A stretch of 64,000 nt of DNA from NCBI GenBank assembly GCA_964525295.1, contig CAZGEO010000002.1, forward strand, positions 65,230 through 129,229, in the 5' to 3' direction. Shown one piece after another: positions 51,107 through 63,098 of the stretch. How positions within the stretch are numbered: the first letter of the stretch is position 1; every line of letters begins with the position of its first letter. Both the position numbers and the translations under genes were made by a program. This stretch comes from an uncultured Candidatus Saccharibacteria bacterium (lineage in GTDB: Bacteria > Patescibacteriota > Dojkabacteria > GCA-002793355). The notes beneath the pieces are model-generated. The model had not been told where the DNA came from, ran no database searches, and saw nothing but the letters and a program-made list of their open reading frames with translations.

Positions 51107-52096
51107 GTGAAAATTTCTTTACAAGAACTTTCAGACTTAGTCATAAAAGCGCTAAGCAAGTATGGTTATTCCGATGAAGAAGTAAGTATTATTAAAGAAG
51201 TGTTGTTGTATGCGCAATTGCGTGGGAATAATCAAGGCATCGTGAAGTTGATTGGTAAAGGTATTCCGAGAAGCGCTGAAGCGGGTGAAATTAGTGTCAT
51301 TTCAGAAAGAAAAGCTGCAATCTTGCTCGATGGGGCAAAGAACTTTGGCATGATACCAATGAAAAAAGCGACAGAGCTTGCAATTGAACGCGCTAAAGAA
51401 TTCGGAGTAGCGGTTGTAGGGCTAACCAATACGTTTAGTTCTACTGGTGCAATTGGTTATTTCGCTCGAGAAATTGCTAAAGCTGACCTGGTAGGAATGA
51501 TTTATGCGGGTTCACCTGAAGCAGTTGCCCCTCATGGCTCATTTGAACCAAAATTTGGAACTAACCCCATGGCGTATGGTTTCCCAACAAGTAACGCGCC
51601 TATTGTTTTTGATATGGCAACAAGTGCCATGGCATGGTTTGGATTAGTGCAGGCAAAAACGGCAGGAAAGAGTATTCCAAACAATGTCGCTTACGATGGC
51701 GAAGGTAATTTAACCACAGATCCAGCAAAAGCAATGGAAGGTGCGATACTTCCTTTTGACAGAAATTACAAAGGATATGGGTTAAATCTCGTGGTTGAGA
51801 TTCTTACTGGGCCTTTGGTACGTTCTGCGATTGCAGGATTACATGCAGAAGATGGCTGGGGCAATCTCGTTGTTGCAATTGATCCATCGGCATTTGTTTC
51901 GATTGAAAAATTTAAGGCTGATATGTCAGCAGCAGTTGAAATTATTCACAATTCAAAGAGATTGCCTGACGTAGAGAAGATATATTTACCAGGAGAAAAA
52001 GGTGATGAATTGGCAAACACAATAACCAAATCTGGTGAGATTGAGGTAGAAGACAATTTATTGAATGAGTTAAGGGCCTTTGTGCAAACGATATGA
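51107..52096 (+). CDS. Ldh_2-family malate / L-lactate / sulfolactate dehydrogenase
   Basis: Overall match to the Ldh_2 family. Length 329 aa. GIGYFAREIAKA-like motifs. Confidence 0.65.
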   Translation: MKISLQELSDLVIKALSKYGYSDEEVSIIKEVLLYAQLRGNNQGIVKLIGKGIPRSAEAGEISVISERKAAILLDGAKNFGMIPMKKATELAIERAKEFGVAVVGLTNTFSSTGAIGYFAREIAKADLVGMIYAGSPEAVAPHGSFEPKFGTNPMAYGFPTSNAPIVFDMATSAMAWFGLVQAKTAGKSIPNNVAYDGEGNLTTDPAKAMEGAILPFDRNYKGYGLNLVVEILTGPLVRSAIAGLHAEDGWGNLVVAIDPSAFVSIEKFKADMSAAVEIIHNSKRLPDVEKIYLPGEKGDELANTITKSGEIEVEDNLLNELRAFVQTI

Positions 52097-52605
52097 AACC
52101 AATGGTTATAACTTTTGCTGGGCCAATTGGTTCCTCGAAAACTCCAATAGCACATCATTTAGGGTGGAATTTAGGTATTCCATTGTTTAATACAGATATT
52201 GTGAGAACAGAATTTACTGAGGATCGCAGATCCTCAGATAGAGCGGAATTTTTACAAGTAGTTGGCGAACGAATTCGCTCTGCATTAAAATTTAGACGAA
52301 ATATAATCATTGATGCAAGTATTGATCGTCTTTGGGAGGAATATAAGAAAGAATTTTTAGCATTTGATTTCCGATTAGTTGTTATTTCAATGGATATAAG
52401 TTTGCCTTTTTTGCGCGAACTTTATCAATTAAAGAAATACTATTTTGATTCAGATGAAATAATACTTAATAATTATAATGAACATCAGGAATTTTTGAGA
52501 AACTTTGCTGACGATGTATCATTATCAATTACAGATGAAAATTTTGATAAAAGATTGAACTTGAGTTTAGAATATGTGCAAAGAGTATTAACGTCTGAAA
52601 ACTAG
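52093..52605 (+). CDS. Small P-loop NTPase/kinase-like protein
   Basis: Walker A FAGPIGSSKT and Walker B-like IIIDAS. Confidence 0.45.
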   Translation: MKPMVITFAGPIGSSKTPIAHHLGWNLGIPLFNTDIVRTEFTEDRRSSDRAEFLQVVGERIRSALKFRRNIIIDASIDRLWEEYKKEFLAFDFRLVVISMDISLPFLRELYQLKKYYFDSDEIILNNYNEHQEFLRNFADDVSLSITDENFDKRLNLSLEYVQRVLTSEN

Positions 52606-53646: not shown

Positions 53647-56600
53647 TTATTTCATCGGCCATTCCTTAATTAAACCATCAATCTCTTTCATAACCCTATC
53701 CGTATTTACTAACGCAACAATGATTTTCTGATAATGTAAAACTTCATCAAAACTCAATTTGCGACCTTTTCTATCTTTTAGCCATTTTTGAGCAGGTTGG
53801 TATCCACCAATATAAAATTCCCATGCAATTTTAGGAACACTATCAAAGTATTGGGTATCATTTATCCAAACCTTGTTTTCTGAATATTTTGGATTTATTA
53901 CTTCGTTTTCACCTGCAACTGGATATTGTGTTACCAATGAACTGCTGTTTGCATGTTCCATTAAATGATATTGCCTAATTTCTCGACCTTTTTCGACGAG
54001 TGACCAGAATAGCTTTTGATTTGATGTAAATGGAATTCGTGGGAAATCTATTTTCAGGAATTCTTTATATCGTTCTCGATATGTTGGAGAGTGAAGTATT
54101 GCGTAAATATAATCAAGAACATCTAGAGGATTGAATGTTCCTTCTTTGCCAGAGTCTGCGTGTTCGTGGTCAGGGATAAAATTGAGTTTTAGTTTACTTG
54201 CAATATGGTCAATAAATCTTTGATTTAAGTTCGGATGACGTCTTGTAGTGTCAAGTTGCGAATCAGTGTAAATGTATAGTGGAAAATTCATGGCGTTACT
54301 ACCAGTATTTCCAGATAAGTAAATCGCTTCAGAAATACTAGTTGTAATGAATGCATGGGCAAAGGAACTATCCTTCAGTGCTTTAGTCGTAAGTAATCCA
54401 ATATTGTTGCCTTTTACATAGTTTTGCATTATTTCAGTTCGCCATCTCCATAATACTTTGTTATCAAAGTATGTATATTTCTTCTCAAATGGTCTGTAAG
54501 CAATCGCCATTGTTTTTTCTGCATCAATTGCGATAGTGTTCTTATTTTGGATAATCCATTTTGCATAGTTCTTTCCCAAAGTATATTTGGTTCTAAAGGT
54601 TGTTTCGTCGTAATCAGTATTTTGTAAATCCTTTAATCGTGAAATGATTGATTCTTGATTATCAGAAATTGCAAATGAGTCACCCATTGTTACAATCCCT
54701 GAGACATTCCTATTAAAGATTGAGTCAATACGTATATAATTTTTATACTCGCCTTTTAGCTGATTGTCCTTGTACACGAAAAAGTATTCAGGCGATTGAT
54801 AGTCGAGTCTGGTCCATTGAATGCTTCCAATATTGGATTTATTTAGAACCGAATATTTTGAATCTCTTTTTCCAAATAAGTCTGCATGATTAACTTCAGC
54901 TAGTGTTTTTTTTGTTTTTTTACTTTTTATAAAAAAGTTTATACTGACCCCTTGCATTATATCGAATACGTTTTCGTCTTTTGTTCCATCAGGGGAGGTT
55001 TCTTTCTTCTTAGTATTTCCGTGAAGGTCCAAGATATAAATTTTATCGAATGTTTTAAGTAGGTGATTACGCATACCTCTAAACGTTGGATTGTCCAAAA
55101 AACCGTGATTGTTAATATACGCGATAATACCTTCCCCATTTTTCTCAATAAACCATTCTGCAAAGCGAATAAACTTTACATAGTCATCTTGAAGCCAATG
55201 CTTCTTTTCGCCAAAATGCACACCATCAACATATTTATAATTCTCGATCAGTTTTGTTATCCATTCTCCGTTATTTGAAGAAACACCGCTGTATGGAGGA
55301 TTACCCATGACAACCATGATTGGTTTTTCCTTCTTAACTTCGTTTGCTTCCATACTTTCAGTCGTTAACCACTGCGAAAGCATATCTTGTTGGTGAGCTC
55401 CGGGTTCTTCTAGCGAATTTGTAAGATAAACGCCGAGTCGTTTACCTTTTCCTTTGGTTGCTTCATAGCCAGTTTCGGCCAAGGTAATATCCAATTTTAG
55501 ATGAGCCATTGAGTAGCTTGCCATCAAAATCTCAAACCCGTGAAGTCTTGGGAGTAAATGTTCGTCAACGTAAGATTGCCAGGCGCCCGCTTGCCCAGTA
55601 AACCGAGTTTTGTAAATATGTTTAATAATGTGGTCCAAAAAGGTTCCGGTTCCAGTTGCTGGGTCAAGAACCTGAACTCGATGTTCAGATACTTTTTGTT
55701 TCTTCTTTGAGCCTTGTAATTCTTTTTCGACCTCGATCTTGCTTGTATCTGCGAGTCCATCGGCAATACCGAACTCAGTTTTCAATATGTCATCGACAGC
55801 ACGTACGATGAAGTCAACCACAGGCTCTGGGGTGTAATAGACGCCTCGAGCCTTTCGCATTTTCTGATCGTATTCTGCAAGGAATGTTTCGTAGAAGTGT
55901 ACGATTGCATCGGTTCGTTTTGTTTCTTTTCCGAAATTCTCGAGTAATTCACGTACATTTACATGATTAAATAGTTCCGCAATATCGTCGACAATCCAAA
56001 TAATTCGTTCATCAATATTGTAACCTGCAATTGTTTGGAAGAAATTCCTCAAAAATGGATTTGACTTAGGCAAGAGATTATTGGCTTCGTCACGAGTAAA
56101 AGTATCTAAGGAAGAATCATGGTAACGGGCTGCAAACATGCCGTAGGCGACTGTTTGAGCATAAATATCCGAGTATTGCTCAAGAGAAAGGTCACGAATT
56201 AATAATTGTTTGAAGACATCGAACTGTTGTTCGAGTGGCCCTTTCTCTGCAGTTACCTCGCTTAATGAGAGATATATTACATTCTTAAGCATTTTTGCCT
56301 TCTCAGCCATTAACGACGCTAACTCCTTTGGACTACGAATTGTAATAGATTTCTTCTGTGTGAAGTTGGTTAATACAGAGTCGAGTAGGGGAATATTCTC
56401 AGGAATAATCTCGATATTTCCGTTTGTTAGACGGGCAATTTCAATTCTTTGAACTTCAACCCCATTCAGAAAGAATCTATAATCAAGGTAGTTAGTGAAG
56501 CAAAGGTTGTTTAGAGAAGCTTTGTATCTATTAAATTGATTTTTCGTTTTGAATTCTTTGTCTAGATCGACGTCAATGTCTTTCGCTTCGATATACCCAA

Positions 56601-56796
56601 TTGGTGTCTTACCTTTTAATATTACAAAATCAGGTGCTCCAACTTTCTGTTGCTTCGGGTCGTTTACTGCATTAATGCCAGGGTTTAGTGTTTCTACAAG
56701 CGTTTCTAATGCTGGGCGGTAGGCGTGTTCACGTGCGTGACCGGTTTTGAATGTTTTAATGACTTCGTCTAAATATGATTGAACTGTGTTAGACAT
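53647..56796 (-). CDS. Type IIG restriction-modification enzyme of the MmeI family
   Basis: N-terminal PD-(D/E)xK region GHAREHAYRPALETL...PDFVI...GYIEAKD. SAM-binding VLDPATGTGTFL. N6-adenine MTase motif IV VMGNPPYSG. A C-terminal target-recognition region. Length 1049 aa. Confidence 0.8.
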   Translation of the reverse strand: MSNTVQSYLDEVIKTFKTGHAREHAYRPALETLVETLNPGINAVNDPKQQKVGAPDFVILKGKTPIGYIEAKDIDVDLDKEFKTKNQFNRYKASLNNLCFTNYLDYRFFLNGVEVQRIEIARLTNGNIEIIPENIPLLDSVLTNFTQKKSITIRSPKELASLMAEKAKMLKNVIYLSLSEVTAEKGPLEQQFDVFKQLLIRDLSLEQYSDIYAQTVAYGMFAARYHDSSLDTFTRDEANNLLPKSNPFLRNFFQTIAGYNIDERIIWIVDDIAELFNHVNVRELLENFGKETKRTDAIVHFYETFLAEYDQKMRKARGVYYTPEPVVDFIVRAVDDILKTEFGIADGLADTSKIEVEKELQGSKKKQKVSEHRVQVLDPATGTGTFLDHIIKHIYKTRFTGQAGAWQSYVDEHLLPRLHGFEILMASYSMAHLKLDITLAETGYEATKGKGKRLGVYLTNSLEEPGAHQQDMLSQWLTTESMEANEVKKEKPIMVVMGNPPYSGVSSNNGEWITKLIENYKYVDGVHFGEKKHWLQDDYVKFIRFAEWFIEKNGEGIIAYINNHGFLDNPTFRGMRNHLLKTFDKIYILDLHGNTKKKETSPDGTKDENVFDIMQGVSINFFIKSKKTKKTLAEVNHADLFGKRDSKYSVLNKSNIGSIQWTRLDYQSPEYFFVYKDNQLKGEYKNYIRIDSIFNRNVSGIVTMGDSFAISDNQESIISRLKDLQNTDYDETTFRTKYTLGKNYAKWIIQNKNTIAIDAEKTMAIAYRPFEKKYTYFDNKVLWRWRTEIMQNYVKGNNIGLLTTKALKDSSFAHAFITTSISEAIYLSGNTGSNAMNFPLYIYTDSQLDTTRRHPNLNQRFIDHIASKLKLNFIPDHEHADSGKEGTFNPLDVLDYIYAILHSPTYRERYKEFLKIDFPRIPFTSNQKLFWSLVEKGREIRQYHLMEHANSSSLVTQYPVAGENEVINPKYSENKVWINDTQYFDSVPKIAWEFYIGGYQPAQKWLKDRKGRKLSFDEVLHYQKIIVALVNTDRVMKEIDGLIKEWPMK

Positions 56797-56933
56797 AGGG
56801 GAATTATATGCCGAAAGCTTGGAAATGGCTAGGATTTTGTAAAAAGACGTGGGAGGATTTCACTACTCACTTTGCCCCCACCAAGAATTCGCCCTCCATT
56901 TGTTTCGCTCGTTGGGGCTCACTGTTTCATTTT

Positions 56934-59231
56934 CTAAATAGTGTTGGTTATGGAGGGGCCAGCTGACATATTCCATATGTCTTTAACGAAATTGTCAATA
57001 TCGGATGGTAAAACCACTTTCTTCAGCATTGGCAAGATGTTGTCGTTATAATGAGGTGATGAGGTCGATAGTTCATCTCTCCAATTCCATACTTTGGAAA
57101 CAATTTCTAAACCATCTAAATATTTCTTATCAATAAAATCTTTATACTTAATTTTGTATTCGCTATCATGTTTTTGGAGGAAACTTTTAATAAATTCGAA
57201 AACTGAATTATATTTATTATGTGTGAGAACCCCAATGTAACTAAGATATATTGCTGATTTGGGCTCGTCTGTATGCAAATCTGCGGCATGAAGGTGCTTT
57301 TCAATCATGTAAGTTAGAGTCTTTACGCTTTTCATAATAGTATCCTCACTATGATTATCAATGATTAATTTTATTGCAATGAATGTAGTTAACTGGAAAT
57401 ATGCTTCAATATTACTGAATTTCTCTTTTGGAATAATAAACCACGAGGAAAGGCTTGAATAGTCATTAATCAAGCGGTCAATATTTGAGATGTAATCAGG
57501 TTTTTTAATATTCGATCTAACTAAAAATAAAAGTTGTATCAGCTGTATTAAGTATTTACCTACGAGACTAAGAATATCAGAGTAAATATCAGTGGTCTCA
57601 CGGACATAGGACCTAAGGGAGAATGCCAATTCTTCATAAAAAGTTAATGCATTTTCTAGTACCTGTTCACTTTTAAGCGCATTTTTCGCAATTGATGTAT
57701 AAACGGAATTAATTAGCCACATATTGAAAATGTAAATGAACATACTATGATATGCACTTCCTCTTTTTACTTGCTGAATAAAGTCAGTGTATTTAAAGAA
57801 TAGTTTCAGAAAATCCGCTATGTTCGATTTCGCTGTAGAAATTGGTACAAAGAGAGATGCATTTAATGTAAATACAATAGTTTTAAAAACAGTTTGAACT
57901 ATTATTTGCTGTTCGTGTGTAATACCCCATTGAATTATTTCTTCTAATGATTCAATGACATTCGGAGCCAACAACTGATCTCTGTAACCAACAGTTTGAA
58001 TGGAGATGTTGTTTAATGAAACTTCTGCTTGATAAATGGATTCAAGGTTATTTGAAACAAGAATTTCTGATATTAGTGTCTTAAAGTAATGAAAGATTTG
58101 AAATGAAATGGGATTATCACCTAGCAGATCGTTTTTTCCATAACTTAATTTCAGTGATTCTAAAACTAGGCTTTCGTAGGTTTTAATCACACATCTCATA
58201 CTAGTTTCCTTTTGAGCAATCAGAAGCCTTTTTGCGAATCTGTTGAAATCTTCAAAGAAGTTCATGAACAATTCTTGGCTATCGCTATTAAATGTCAGCA
58301 GCCCATCCTTTGCTAACTCTTTTGATGAATTCCCTTTTCTTAACTGCAGGTACTGGTATAAAATTCTTGCTACTGAATCAATAGCTTGATTCGTTTGGAA
58401 ATCCTTCTGTTTTTCTGACAATTGTGTCGCAATCTCTATCATGCCTTGAAGGTTATCAAAAAGATATTTGAAATTTGTTTTTTCAGCAGAACCATAAACG
58501 AACTTGGTGATTTCTTCATTAGAGTAGTTGCTGTTTGCACTAATTACTTTTATGAAATGCTCAGCATCAATTTTGATTGTTTTTAATAGATTGCTACACT
58601 CATTTTCTAAATACTTGATTGCATTAGTTGGATTAACTTTCTGTGAGGTAGATTGGTGTAAGAAATCTATCAATATAAGAGCAAGAGTAATTAAAGAGAT
58701 TGCTGTAGCAGTAAAGAGTTTTATCCATGCTAAGTAAGTAGTGGTACCAGAAGTGAGAAAACCAATAAATAGAAAAAGTATAGTTATCGTTGCAAGATAC
58801 CTATAAATCTGTTGGTCACGTTTATCATGAATATACTTTTCGTAAAAAGAGCTAGACTGCAACTCATTTACACTTTGCTGAAGAAAATTGGTAAGAGAAT
58901 ATACTATTGCGATGATACCACCCATCATGCTACCTATTGCGAAATATCCGTTTGATAATGCCGAATAGTTTTCAAAGACAGGAAAATAAAAATATGTAAG
59001 AAACGAAAGTGTTAAACCAATAATAATTATTGTAATTCTAATAATATTCCGTGAATTCAGATCCCAAATTGAAATTGTTAGCAACCATCGCGATCTGGTT
59101 TTGTATAAGAATACCAAAAACTTAGCTCTTATTGATTTAACAAATATCTGTGCCGCGGATATTAGTGTTTTAATCCTAGCTATGATTTGGTTTTTTGATT
59201 TTTCGCGAATTGTTTTAATTGTGTTGGACAT
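56934..59231 (-). CDS. Hypothetical membrane-anchored protein, 765 aa
   Basis: Four or five N-terminal TM helices are followed by a roughly 560-aa predicted alpha-rich soluble domain. No recognisable motif. Very AT-rich. Confidence 0.55.
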   Translation of the reverse strand: MSNTIKTIREKSKNQIIARIKTLISAAQIFVKSIRAKFLVFLYKTRSRWLLTISIWDLNSRNIIRITIIIIGLTLSFLTYFYFPVFENYSALSNGYFAIGSMMGGIIAIVYSLTNFLQQSVNELQSSSFYEKYIHDKRDQQIYRYLATITILFLFIGFLTSGTTTYLAWIKLFTATAISLITLALILIDFLHQSTSQKVNPTNAIKYLENECSNLLKTIKIDAEHFIKVISANSNYSNEEITKFVYGSAEKTNFKYLFDNLQGMIEIATQLSEKQKDFQTNQAIDSVARILYQYLQLRKGNSSKELAKDGLLTFNSDSQELFMNFFEDFNRFAKRLLIAQKETSMRCVIKTYESLVLESLKLSYGKNDLLGDNPISFQIFHYFKTLISEILVSNNLESIYQAEVSLNNISIQTVGYRDQLLAPNVIESLEEIIQWGITHEQQIIVQTVFKTIVFTLNASLFVPISTAKSNIADFLKLFFKYTDFIQQVKRGSAYHSMFIYIFNMWLINSVYTSIAKNALKSEQVLENALTFYEELAFSLRSYVRETTDIYSDILSLVGKYLIQLIQLLFLVRSNIKKPDYISNIDRLINDYSSLSSWFIIPKEKFSNIEAYFQLTTFIAIKLIIDNHSEDTIMKSVKTLTYMIEKHLHAADLHTDEPKSAIYLSYIGVLTHNKYNSVFEFIKSFLQKHDSEYKIKYKDFIDKKYLDGLEIVSKVWNWRDELSTSSPHYNDNILPMLKKVVLPSDIDNFVKDIWNMSAGPSITNTI

Positions 59232-59372
59232 ACATATAATTATAACCTAAATGTCCCACCATTATCATTATTTGAATATTTTTTTAATTCATTCAAAATG
59301 AACTGCACGTTTTTATTAATCAACTCAGAATCACTGTTACAACAAATGAGATTATCAAATTAGTAATAGGCT

Positions 59373-59416
59373 GGGGTTTCGGTCACCTTGCGGAAGTTTT
59401 GTTCACTTCGTTTCAC
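59373..59416. repeat. Copy 1 of a 44-bp direct repeat; the partner copy is at 62756-62799
   Basis: About 40 of 44 nt are identical, with the core CGGTCACCT(T/C)GCGGAAGTTTTGTTCACTTCG. It overlaps the stop codon of the Abi_C gene. Confidence 0.7.
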
Positions 59417-60195
59417 ACGGTATTGATCGTGCCTTTAATTGAGAGTGGATTGAAGTGATGAAAGTCTAAGATGAAGATCCCAAGAGATCCGCAAAGGTTA
59501 ACTGCAAGCTCTGCATATTTTGGATCGGTTATTTCTACACCAGCAATTTGTCCGTGTCTATTTCCATCACTGTTTGAAAGTGTAGACAGAGCGTTTACTA
59601 TTGATGCAATTCCCTTTATGAACTGGTGCTCGTTTTGATAGTCAGCGATATTTAATCCCACCGCTTGTTCGGTATCCTTGAGTAATTCTGATAATTCACC
59701 CGTATATTTATTGGACATACCTCTTTCGTTCAATATTGTTCTACATAATGTTTCCAACATTGTTCTAGCACTGGTAATAGCTTCAGCAGGATTTGAAATA
59801 ATCTTATTGCTTGCGGTTATCCAGTCTTCTCTATAAGTATTTTCCATTAGATGAGAAAACTTCAATCCAATTGGATTGGAGCCGAAAGGAGCATAAAGGA
59901 CTTCGGTTAAGTAATGAATTTCTTGAGGTGTGGGATAGGAATACTTCATATCTAAAGGGGTTTTTATAAGTGTGTCTAGAGCATAAAACTGTTCCTTTGC
60001 TGGAAGACTAAGTATTACCTCAGTAAAAAGTTCTTCCCTTTTGGGAGTTATTGAATACGCTGTTAAAGGTTTAATACTTTTTGAGTAGTTAGTTGAGAAT
60101 GAAAGGATTTCCTTAAGAGAAAATCCTTTGCCCGCACCTGCAAAATACGATGCAAAAATTTCGATTCTTGCCCGTTCAAGTTTTTCTATAGCCAT
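59413..60195 (-). CDS. Abi_C-like abortive-infection C-terminal-domain protein
   Basis: TMLETLCRTILNERG and NALSTLSNSDGNRHG resemble the conserved Abi_C motifs. Confidence 0.5.
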   Translation of the reverse strand: MAIEKLERARIEIFASYFAGAGKGFSLKEILSFSTNYSKSIKPLTAYSITPKREELFTEVILSLPAKEQFYALDTLIKTPLDMKYSYPTPQEIHYLTEVLYAPFGSNPIGLKFSHLMENTYREDWITASNKIISNPAEAITSARTMLETLCRTILNERGMSNKYTGELSELLKDTEQAVGLNIADYQNEHQFIKGIASIVNALSTLSNSDGNRHGQIAGVEITDPKYAELAVNLCGSLGIFILDFHHFNPLSIKGTINTV

Positions 60196-60199
60196 AGTG

Positions 60200-61003
60200 T
60201 TATTTGATTAGATCCCATTTATTTAGATAATAGCTCATATCGTTCTCCTTTTTCCCGATATATGGCTTTTCTTCATTGAATTTTATGGCGACTGCATATC
60301 TAGATTTATCTTTCATTGTAAATATGTACTTTTCAGTCACTAATTTCTCTACGACATGAGCAGGAAGAATCATATAATTGTCCGAACTATCACCATGAAG
60401 TACAAAGACATAGAAGATGTTGCTTTCGTTATAGCGGTCAAAAGAAGCCTTTCTAATCGTTAAGGGGTAGGTGTTAACCTTATTAAGGTTAGAAGTCTTT
60501 ACCTGTATTCCATAAAATTTTGCCTTTTTCGTTGCGACTATATCAAGTCCGACATCGACAGACATGATACTTGCATTGAATCCTAGAAATAAAAGTTTGG
60601 AGCAGACCAAGTGTTCTCCACCCTTGCCTGTGTAGCCACTCTCAAGCTTCTCTTTCGCTTCAAGTTTCTGGAGTTGCTTTGCCGCTTTGTCTGTTTTGGA
60701 AATCTTTACATCGTCATTAAGAATGTAAAGTCCCTTATCATTTCGTTTGAAAGTTGCGTTATCTCCATTTAATTTGATATCGACAGTAATTACTGCACTC
60801 ATTGTGTTTTCGGGGCGTTTTGATCCAGTTACAAGTAAACCTTTTTCAAGTGCCAGTTTTGTGATCTGCAAAACAGACAAGCCATCTTCATTTTGGCGCA
60901 ATATTTTAGTTGCGGCCTCTTTGTAAGCATTCATATTGGAATTATATTCTTTTCCTGTTTCGGTTGCTATGATTACTGGAACCTGAGAGAATATCTGCGG
61001 CAA
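60200..61003 (-). CDS. Mrr-like restriction endonuclease (HARE-HTH N-domain plus Mrr_cat PD-(D/E)xK domain), a putative Type IV enzyme
   Basis: N-terminal AATKILRQNEDGLSVLQITKLALEKGLL...FKRNDKGLYIL matches the HARE-HTH/Mrr_N domain. C-terminal GGEHLVCSKLLFLGF...SVDVGLDIVA...GIQVKT follows the Mrr catalytic pattern. Confidence 0.6.
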   Translation of the reverse strand: MPQIFSQVPVIIATETGKEYNSNMNAYKEAATKILRQNEDGLSVLQITKLALEKGLLVTGSKRPENTMSAVITVDIKLNGDNATFKRNDKGLYILNDDVKISKTDKAAKQLQKLEAKEKLESGYTGKGGEHLVCSKLLFLGFNASIMSVDVGLDIVATKKAKFYGIQVKTSNLNKVNTYPLTIRKASFDRYNESNIFYVFVLHGDSSDNYMILPAHVVEKLVTEKYIFTMKDKSRYAVAIKFNEEKPYIGKKENDMSYYLNKWDLIK

Positions 61004-62825: not shown

Positions 62826-62989
62826 CGCTCGACAACAAATTGTTGTTGTCTTACTCCCGCTTCGAATCCCACAACATTTTTTATCTTTTCCTCTCCTAAT
62901 TACTCCGTTTTTGTTCTTTTTCGGTTCCTGACCGTAACGAAAAATAGCGGTGCTGTTTTGCGTAGGGAAGGAGAGAAAAAGATAAAAAC
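62826..62989 (-). ncRNA. Structured element trailing tRNA-Ser: long stem (62877-62896 / 62970-62989) and hairpin GACAACAACAATTTGTTGTC at 62829-62849
   Basis: Same architecture as the element trailing tRNA-Leu, with the same 24-nt motif and ACCGAAAAAGAAC 13-mer. The T-loop-like fragment TTCGAATCCC matches tRNA-Ser's own T-loop. Confidence 0.5.
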
Positions 62990-63076
62990 GGAGAAGGCGG
63001 GATTCGAACCCGCGATACCCGTAATGGGTATACTCCCTTTCCAGGGGAGCCCTTTCAACCACTCAGGCACCTCTCC
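62989..63076 (-). tRNA. tRNA-Ser(GGA), a type II tRNA
   Basis: Minus-strand cloverleaf with acceptor GGAGAGG / CTTCTCC. Anticodon stem CTCCC/GGGAG with loop CTGGAAA. Long variable arm TACCCATTACGGGTA. T-arm GCGGGTTCGAATCCCGC. Confidence 0.85.
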
Positions 63077-63098
63077 AAAGTTTTCTTAGTGTTGTGAA

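Follow-up and report, generated by a model that had tools for sequence, protein, structure and literature searches.

A family of four-helix membrane proteins with a predicted HEAT-like solenoid, repeatedly found beside restriction–modification genes in Patescibacteria and other bacteria

Restriction–modification (RM) is the most common form of defence in prokaryotes, and few accessory factors are known to accompany it. The classic examples are the abortive-infection genes PrrC and RloC, which lie within Type I RM loci. Other defence systems use membrane proteins: RexB and the Kiwa protein KwaA each contain four transmembrane (TM) helices, ZorA of Zorya carries a TM part followed by a long helical cytoplasmic tail, and TM effectors occur in CBASS, Pycsar and retrons. 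The candidate phyla radiation (CPR, Patescibacteria) has, as far as we are aware, tiny genomes that largely or often lack CRISPR. Here we analyse a gene from an uncultured Candidatus Saccharibacteria bacterium, located on a stretch of 64,000 nucleotides (nt) of contig CAZGEO010000002.1 (assembly GCA_964525295.1, positions 65,230 to 129,229), hereafter called the window. The gene (56934..59231, minus strand) encodes a protein of 765 amino acids (aa), the target, which consists of a four-TM module and an alpha-solenoid. It belongs to a sizeable and previously undescribed protein family that has no Pfam model.

With respect to location, this family is reminiscent of PrrC and RloC, since the accessory gene is joined to RM operons and could plausibly provide a second line when restriction fails. 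Such a location was found in the loci L029, L032, L049, L007, L025, L002 and L041 (described below), and the window gene lies 137 nt from a Type IIG gene. In contrast to PrrC and RloC, the family has neither an ABC-type ATPase nor an anticodon nuclease domain, it is membrane-anchored, and it also occurs with Type III and Type IIG/MmeI-type systems and often without any RM gene. With RexB and KwaA the likeness lies in the number of TM helices and in what may be a shared plan, namely a small polytopic membrane module with cytoplasmic sensing or transmission, present in defence islands. The target nevertheless matches none of the PADLOC models, which include RexB, KwaA and ZorA, and its family lacks a conserved partner gene corresponding to RexA, KwaB or ZorB-D. 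Unlike the coiled-coil tail of ZorA, the cytoplasmic part of the target is a HEAT-like solenoid of about 570 aa, predicted within the same polypeptide.

Association of the family with restriction–modification and other mobile genes

To examine the genomic contexts of the family, we compared 41 unique loci: the window, 15 loci from GTDB, one viral and 19 metagenomic loci, the contexts of P0002-P0006, P0008, P0010, P0011 and P0160, and a megaplasmid of Ensifer adhaerens. The conserved motif of the second TM helix (TM2) served as the pattern by which loci were retrieved, and the GTDB locus scan used a 12-sequence alignment. The association of the family gene with RM, defence and mobile-element genes proved to be strong and repeated. 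In eight loci an RM gene of Type I, Type III or Eco57I/MmeI type lies immediately upstream of the family gene and in the same direction. The preceding gene is hsdR in L029 (2-nt gap) and L032 (4-nt overlap), hsdS in L049 (4-nt overlap), an Eco57I/MmeI-type methyltransferase gene in L025 (26 nt), L024 (52 nt) and L039 (2 nt), and a Type III Res gene in L002 (34 nt) and L041 (33 nt). In L007 an hsdR-hsdMS cluster is separated from the family gene by one small gene, and in two further cases the RM gene is the next one downstream, encoding a Type IIG enzyme in the window and a C5 methyltransferase in L014. A pair consisting of a PLD-SNF2 helicase and an MmeI-type methyltransferase is found nearby in L018 and L052. 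Altogether, an RM gene is present within three genes in 12 of the 41 loci and within 10 kb in 15. Given an assumed, not measured, RM background of 1-5%, the upstream position of an RM gene in 8 of 39 loci corresponds to P = 5e-9 to 6e-4, and after collapse to five lineages the corresponding values, under the same assumed background, are P = 4e-5 to 0.04.

The neighbour-joining tree placed the family proteins of L002, L029, L007, L011 and L032 in one tight clade. Within this clade the family gene is more conserved than the RM genes that precede it: the family proteins of L007, L029 and L032 are 71-77% identical, whereas the adjacent HsdR and HsdM are only 22-29% identical. Of the other two members of the clade, L011 lacks an RM gene in its vicinity, and the gene preceding the L002 copy encodes a Type III Res protein. 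P0010, which is about 40% identical to the members of this clade, ends a Type I operon with the order R-M-S-target instead of M-S-R-target. The association with Eco57I/MmeI-type genes is likewise seen in at least three clades (L024/L025, L018 and L052). That such similar family genes stand beside such divergent RM genes, and beside RM genes of another type or order, indicates that the juxtaposition has arisen repeatedly. This points either to a functional link of the family with RM as such or to a preferred insertion site at the ends of RM operons, and it speaks against specific recognition of one RM enzyme by the family protein.

Beside the family gene in L018 (1-4911), L025 (20-4474) and L052 (3251-9794), which belong to three different clades, we also noted a two-gene module composed of a fused PLDc_2 nuclease-SNF2 helicase (~1100 aa) and an Eco57I/MmeI-type methyltransferase (~1020-1160 aa). 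This module has the look of a separate system, similar to RM or DISARM.

An all-versus-all comparison of the neighbours in the 41 loci revealed no conserved partner gene, and the family gene therefore appears to be a self-contained unit. The partnership with an Abi_C-Mrr pair that a reading of the window made from its sequence only (hereafter the sequence-only reading) had suggested is accordingly not supported. Some recognised defence-type neighbour is present in about 18 loci. These neighbours include ApeA and an E1/E2 pair in L004, OLD/AAA_15-21 ATPases in L018 and L032, and SLFN_AlbA_2, DUF4238 and AbiEii in L044 and L016; DUF4238 adjoins the family gene in the latter two, mutually unrelated loci (L016 8731-9645 and L044 6008-6787, positions -1 and -3). 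HEPN_Cthe2314-like proteins with an RNxxxH motif, homologous to one another (phmmer 1e-13), are encoded in L020 (147-971) and L025 (6887-7651), and their genes overlap the family gene, upstream in one of these loci and downstream in the other. Other HEPN neighbours are ApeA (L004), AbiV (L047/L048) and Abi_C (window). A conserved HEPN partner, an idea raised by Abi_C in the window and HEPN_Cthe2314 in L020, was considered and rejected as a general feature, as HEPN-type neighbours occur in only five loci and represent four different HEPN families. The genes upstream of the family gene are in general heterogeneous (TrmD, RpoD, ThiF, DUF4238 and genes without assignment).

Recombinase, phage or insertion sequence (IS) hallmarks were found in 16 of the 41 loci, and one large cluster of serine recombinases is represented in 10. 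L016, L023/L047 and L033 share a phage module consisting of a large terminase, a small terminase-like helix-turn-helix (HTH) protein and a ParB_N-N6_N4 methyltransferase, which suggests that the family gene is carried at the end of CPR prophages. L052 is bounded by an integrase and a recombinase, L013 contains RepB and T2SSE, and the Ensifer copy adjoins a resolvase gene on a conjugative megaplasmid. In L041/L042 (9848-11150) an IS200-type Y1 transposase gene lies between fragments of the family gene encoding its N-terminal 162 aa and a further 87 aa, and in L015 (9740-12721) a 215-aa stub is found beside IS200-like and rve integrase genes. The family gene is thus horizontally mobile and dispensable. 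The sequence-only reading had named a predominance of homologues in housekeeping contexts as the observation that would speak against it. Such contexts account for only two of the 41 loci, as compared with about 18 loci with defence-type neighbours, 12 with an RM gene within three genes and 16 with mobile-element hallmarks, and the idea thus withstood this check.

Two further downstream genes were observed. In one clade a small gene encoding 149-182 aa with two to five hydrophobic segments follows the family gene (L007 12316-12864, L032 10123-10620, L029 12363-12812 and L023 12189-12713), at a distance of 3 nt in L032 and 19 nt in L029 and with overlap in L007 and L023. The L007 and L032 copies are homologous, and the product is possibly a clade-specific membrane partner that is absent from the window. 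Two hosts that are not related to each other both encode, a few kb beyond the family gene on its downstream side, a very large protein (1411 aa in Ensifer) whose only recognised domain is an N-terminal HigA-like HTH (L043 14589-18824, Ensifer adhaerens pB, and L029 16397-20209; phmmer E = 6.6e-125).

The protein family, its membrane module and the predicted fold

The sequence-only reading correctly delimited the 765-aa open reading frame (ORF), which starts with ATG, but called its product unknown, and in the sense of an orphan this does not hold. An exhaustive HMMER search of 1.84 billion representatives returned 147 relatives at E<=1e-3, 83 at E<=1e-10 and 17 at E<=1e-30, counted as clusters at 50% identity, so that the family comprises at least 147 clusters. 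The members are mostly 750-850 aa long and align with the target nearly end to end. The best relative of the window protein is 33% identical, which makes the latter a divergent member. Word-indexed searches, whether with the single protein or with a 40-sequence profile, returned the query alone, an outcome we consider an artefact because the sequence is of low complexity and AT-biased. The hosts are mainly CPR/Patescibacteria, but Nitrospirota, Acidobacteriota/Vicinamibacterales and one Alphaproteobacterium are also represented; the copy on the Ensifer adhaerens megaplasmid was confirmed by profile (E = 3e-55). Where the relatives have a name at NCBI it is 'hypothetical protein', and no Pfam domain has been precomputed for them. 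Nor was a description of the family found in the literature on DUF2254, on RM and defence islands, on hsdR/hsdS-linked membrane proteins or on defence in Patescibacteria.

No significant match to the target was obtained in Pfam, PADLOC, NCBIfam, PHROG or the PDB sequences. Its sole Pfam match was HU-CCDC81_euk_2 with 14.8 bits, which is below the cutoff of 26.1, and no Abi or HEPN domain was seen. TIGR04402 (a mobilome CxxCx(11)CxxC protein) scored 17.7 bits (E 0.003, aa 123-244) against a curated cutoff of 70 bits; the Cys content of the target is 0.3%, by arithmetic about two residues. DUF2254 (PF10011, a predicted membrane protein) gave weak matches to four of 40 family members, the best at 4.4e-5, and none to the window protein at E<=0.1. 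Its organisation, a membrane module plus a soluble part, presumably resembles that of the target family, and judged from these matches a distant relationship between DUF2254 and the TM module is possible. In the excerpts available, the literature mentioning DUF2254 is concerned with other topics (protein knots, prediction of Salmonella severity and orphan enzymes) and gives no function.

Of the four or five N-terminal TM helices proposed earlier, four are borne out. Kyte-Doolittle hydropathy shows four strong segments in the target at about aa 63-81, 95-117, 142-167 and 170-188, and the same number is the most frequent one among full-length family members (68 of 109); neither hydropathy nor the family counts support a fifth helix in the target. 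The N-terminal 62 residues (59046..59231, minus strand) contain 13 Lys and Arg, whereas loops 1 and 3 contain none, and this positive-inside charge pattern indicates that the N-terminus and the C-terminal domain are both cytoplasmic (N-in). The predicted external loops are short, about 13 and 9 aa. The four-helix module itself comprises aa 63-190 (58662..59045, minus strand) and has a model confidence (predicted local distance difference test, pLDDT) of about 76-92.

The strongest conservation in the whole protein, including the best-conserved 8-column window, falls within the TM2 motif at aa 98-119 (58875..58940, minus strand), A-x-G-x-M-x-G-G-x-x-A-I-V-F/Y-S-L...F..Q; in the family alignments the block at aa 99-119 reads G-A-M-x-G-G-I-x-A-I-V-F-S-L...F-x-Q. 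Here G104 is conserved in 95%, A108 in 92%, and G105, I109 and Q119 each in 90%. The residues G100, G104, A108 and S112 are placed with small-xxx-small spacing (i, i+4, i+8, i+12), the conserved residues Q119 and D189 are located at cytoplasmic ends of TM helices, and a further conserved block, L-I-D-W-Q-Y-K-N-V-x-x-K-x-N-P, is found at the end of TM4.

AlphaFold2 supplied with the 40-sequence family alignment gave an all-alpha model with a pLDDT of 84.6 and a predicted TM-score (pTM) of 0.77; from the single sequence the pLDDT was 42. The model shows a long N-terminal helix (residues 4-82) that runs into TM1, three more TM helices and, after these, a stack of hairpins formed by about 22 helices. 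The roughly 560-aa alpha-rich soluble part proposed by the sequence-only reading, which has no significant family match, is thereby placed in a fold class. With about 11 antiparallel hairpins stacked into a superhelix, the region aa 191-765 (56937..58661, minus strand) is modelled as a cytoplasmic HEAT/ARM-like alpha-solenoid, and no enzyme or effector fold is seen in the model of this part. The earlier description of the protein as a typical abortive-infection effector is thus not supported, given this fold and the absence of any match to an Abi or defence model. The repeat families of Pfam (HEAT, Arm and TPR) matched neither the target nor its 40 relatives. The closest structures were Sec7 DCB-HUS, condensin Ycg1, PP2A-A, importins and designed helical repeats, with query-normalised TM-scores of 0.09-0.26 and identities of 3-13%. 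This likeness to eukaryotic-type HEAT/ARM scaffolds is a generic repeat resemblance and not homology, and none of those scaffolds (Sec7, Ycg1, PP2A-A and importins) is anchored by a four-TM module. The soluble part contains the conserved blocks E-S-D-S-Q (315-319), N-P-I (373-375), Y-D-E-P-R (654-658), G667 and D-I-D-R-F-x-x-E-V-W (744-753), and its conserved polar positions are R298, S302, S316-D317-S318, N373-P374, E397, R540, E656-P657-(R/K)658 and D744-x-D746...W753. With a median pI of 6.05 and a net charge of -7 across the family, the solenoid is slightly acidic, a property more in line with the binding of proteins than with general binding of DNA.

The gene is indeed AT-rich, as had been pointed out. 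Its GC content is 0.319 as compared with 0.386 for the window, the second lowest value (z = -3.0 against 47 other long ORFs). The GC content at third codon positions (GC3) is ordinary (0.302 vs 0.327, z = -0.64), so that the AT-richness derives from the amino acid composition (Ile 12%, Leu 11%, Ser 10%, Lys 8%, and also rich in Asn and Phe) and not from foreign codon usage. A foreign origin deduced from low GC was therefore rejected. The lowest GC in the window (0.312) belongs to a 170-aa AAA_33/kinase-like ORF at 52093-52605 (plus strand) whose GC3 is strikingly low (0.216); unlike the target, this ORF is compositionally odd at synonymous sites.

Neighbours and spacers in the window

In the window, a gene for a HARE-HTH/PD-(D/E)XK protein, an Abi_C gene, the target gene and a Type IIG RM gene follow one another in this order, all on the minus strand. 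The downstream neighbour (53647..56796, minus strand) encodes a single-chain Type IIG/ISP-type RM enzyme of 1049 aa, identified by PADLOC REase_MTase_IIG (1093 bits) and by the Pfam models Type_ISP_C (3e-81), N6_Mtase and Eco57I, and it lies at the 137-nt distance given in the sequence-only reading. The distance to the upstream Abi_C gene, stated there as 182 nt, is 181 nt. That gene (59413..60195, minus strand) encodes a 260-aa AbiJ-like protein with an Abi_C (HEPN-type) C-terminus (Abi_C 3e-9, PADLOC AbiJ 1.3e-12, phrog_23253 2e-20). The canonical Rx4-6H motif was not found in it, the corresponding stretch being LSNSDGNRHG, and judged from this stretch its HEPN domain may have degenerated or may be altered in its catalysis. 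Next to it, after a 4-nt gap, is the gene (60200..61003, minus strand) of a 267-aa HARE-HTH protein (HARE-HTH 3e-10, phrog_5018 1e-9) with a weakly PD-(D/E)XK-like C-terminus (PDDEXK_5 E=0.017). No Mrr_cat match was obtained for this protein, and the designation 'Mrr' is only loosely supported. PDB sequence searches with the Abi_C and HARE-HTH neighbours gave no match.

The 137-nt spacer that separates the target from the RM gene (56797..56933, minus strand) has no convincing terminator (RNA fold z = +1.67 vs shuffles), and the AT-rich spacer upstream of the target (59232..59412, 181 nt, minus strand) contains promoter-like hexamers (RNA fold z = +0.37). Neither spacer folds better than shuffled sequence, and no terminator or structured RNA was detected in them. 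Promoter-like sequences are ATGATA-18-TATAAT upstream of the target (59268..59239) and TAGCCA-17-TATAAT, whose end is 6-7 nt from the ATG of the RM gene. The perfect TATAAT in each (59239-59244 and 56803-56808, minus strand) ends about 6-8 nt before the ATG of the target and of the RM gene, respectively, a position that hints at leaderless or very short-leader transcripts for both genes. It should be underlined that promoter-like sites are no more frequent in these spacers than in shuffled sequence.

The strain SRR32934939 carries the same block, and the last 105 residues of the target are 100% identical there. As this is the only close strain found, no island-free relative was available for mapping the boundaries. 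A tRNA-Ser(GGA) gene (62988-63077, minus strand) is located about 2 kb beyond the defence block of the window. In SRR32934939 (L022 3160-4374) a 183-aa ORF and a NUDIX gene follow the DUF998 gene in place of the tRNA-Ser and a hydrolase gene, which suggests that the junction after the DUF998 gene varies between strains.

Proposed function and alternative explanations

We propose that the family protein is an autonomous sensor-effector accessory of phage defence that backs up restriction, and we assign this reading a probability of roughly 0.45. The solenoid would serve as a protein-binding sensor, either for a phage product or for a consequence of failed restriction, and the signal would pass from it to the conserved four-TM module. 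This module might oligomerise or gate through the small-xxx-small zipper of TM2 and the conserved Gln and Asp at the cytoplasmic helix ends, and such gating would dissipate the membrane potential and lead to abortive infection or to blocked DNA entry. An anti-phage function had already been predicted from the placement of the gene between an RM gene and an Abi gene. The association that emerges from the family is more specific than this, being with RM operons, and the function is still deduced from association. On that basis a defence role is credible; the mechanism, with its split between sensor and effector and its pore formation, is what we infer from the architecture.

Several observations weigh against this proposal. 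Association, the line of evidence behind the defence role, could also mean shared mobility or an insertion hot spot, and the 8:2 asymmetry between RM genes upstream and downstream is by itself not significant (p = 0.11). In the window the target precedes the RM gene, with a 137-nt gap and no overlap, unlike the usual order in the family, and its protein departs from the family consensus at P595S, K649A, K672N and F688H. The small-xxx-small motif of TM2, as read from the sequence, could equally reflect plain helix packing. In about 11 loci all neighbours are unannotated, and in two the immediate neighbours are housekeeping genes (TrmD in L010, RpoD/DnaG in L011). PADLOC-DB v2.0.0, with 5027 HMMs including candidate systems, yielded no family for the target at E<=0.1, although the same scan did score its neighbours (1093 bits for the Type IIG enzyme and 1.3e-12 for AbiJ). 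Moreover, phage collections are nearly devoid of the family: the 2.9 M contigs of IMG/VR yielded a single locus (L023), and 50,697 GenBank phages yielded no locus.

The protein might instead be non-lethal and tether or organise restriction at the inner membrane, with the solenoid binding the RM complex or incoming DNA. By analogy with the membrane-anchored recruitment in Zorya or Kiwa, this would place restriction at the site of phage DNA entry. Type I enzymes are reported to be membrane-associated, the tight position at the 3' end of RM operons (2-nt gaps and 4-nt overlaps) suggests co-translation with RM subunits, and the association covers three RM types. On the other hand, family proteins that are 71-77% identical beside HsdR and HsdM that are 22-29% identical, and beside a Type III Res, fit poorly with specific recognition; many copies (L010, L011, L012, L044 and others) have no RM gene within 10 kb, and the acidic solenoid does not suggest general DNA binding. 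We therefore regard a platform of this kind as possible but doubtful. An unlikely explanation is that the protein serves the mobile elements that carry it, through superinfection or entry exclusion or some other membrane function, and that adjacency to RM genes reflects shared hot spots. This would account for the serine-recombinase cluster in 10 loci, the terminase and ParB-methyltransferase module in L016, L023 and L033, the integrase-bounded L052, the RepB and T2SSE of L013 and the resolvase next to the Ensifer copy. Yet external loops of ~9-13 aa leave little surface to block contact with a phage or pilus, stop and start codons that overlap with those of RM genes exceed loose co-location, and there is a single IMG/VR match.

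Unlikelier again, in our view, is a membrane protein without a role in defence, either DUF2254-like or an envelope or signalling scaffold, that merely tolerates variable genome regions. The weak DUF2254 matches in 4 of 40 members are in keeping with it, as are the housekeeping flanks of L010 and L011 and the NUDIX, dUTPase, glyoxalase and similar genes beside P0002 and P0004. Against these stand the patchy distribution across unrelated phyla with no conserved synteny, the IS-disrupted and truncated copies, the strong over-representation of RM, defence and mobile-element genes among the neighbours, and the fact that the window protein itself gives no DUF2254 match. The target gene is real; that it could be a chance or degenerating ORF within an AT-rich intergenic stretch of a defence island is extremely improbable. 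The low GC, the missing database annotation and the word-indexed searches that return only the query might have given that impression. It is refuted by full-length homologues in more than 100 clusters with motifs conserved along the whole length and by the confident alignment-based AlphaFold2 model; GC3 is moreover normal, and a second strain has an identical C-terminus.

Compatible with several of these observations, but doubtful as a general description, is the idea of the family as a portable membrane module for restriction that is plugged onto the ends of Type I, Type III or Type IIG/MmeI-type operons. Such a module might act as a guard of the RM system, collapsing the membrane once restriction is inhibited, or it might concentrate restriction at the site of DNA entry. 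In either form it would be a new class of RM accessory factor, widespread in CPR bacteria.

To return to the proposed sensor-effector accessory, present catalogues of defence systems list no architecture that combines four TM helices with a HEAT-like solenoid. A defence function of the family would give restriction a new, membrane-coupled layer, and the copy on the Ensifer adhaerens megaplasmid offers a cultivable entry point. If the association is due to co-mobility only, the family remains a marker for an insertion hot spot that recurs at the ends of RM operons. Should the family act in defence, it would help to explain the phage resistance of CPR/Patescibacteria.

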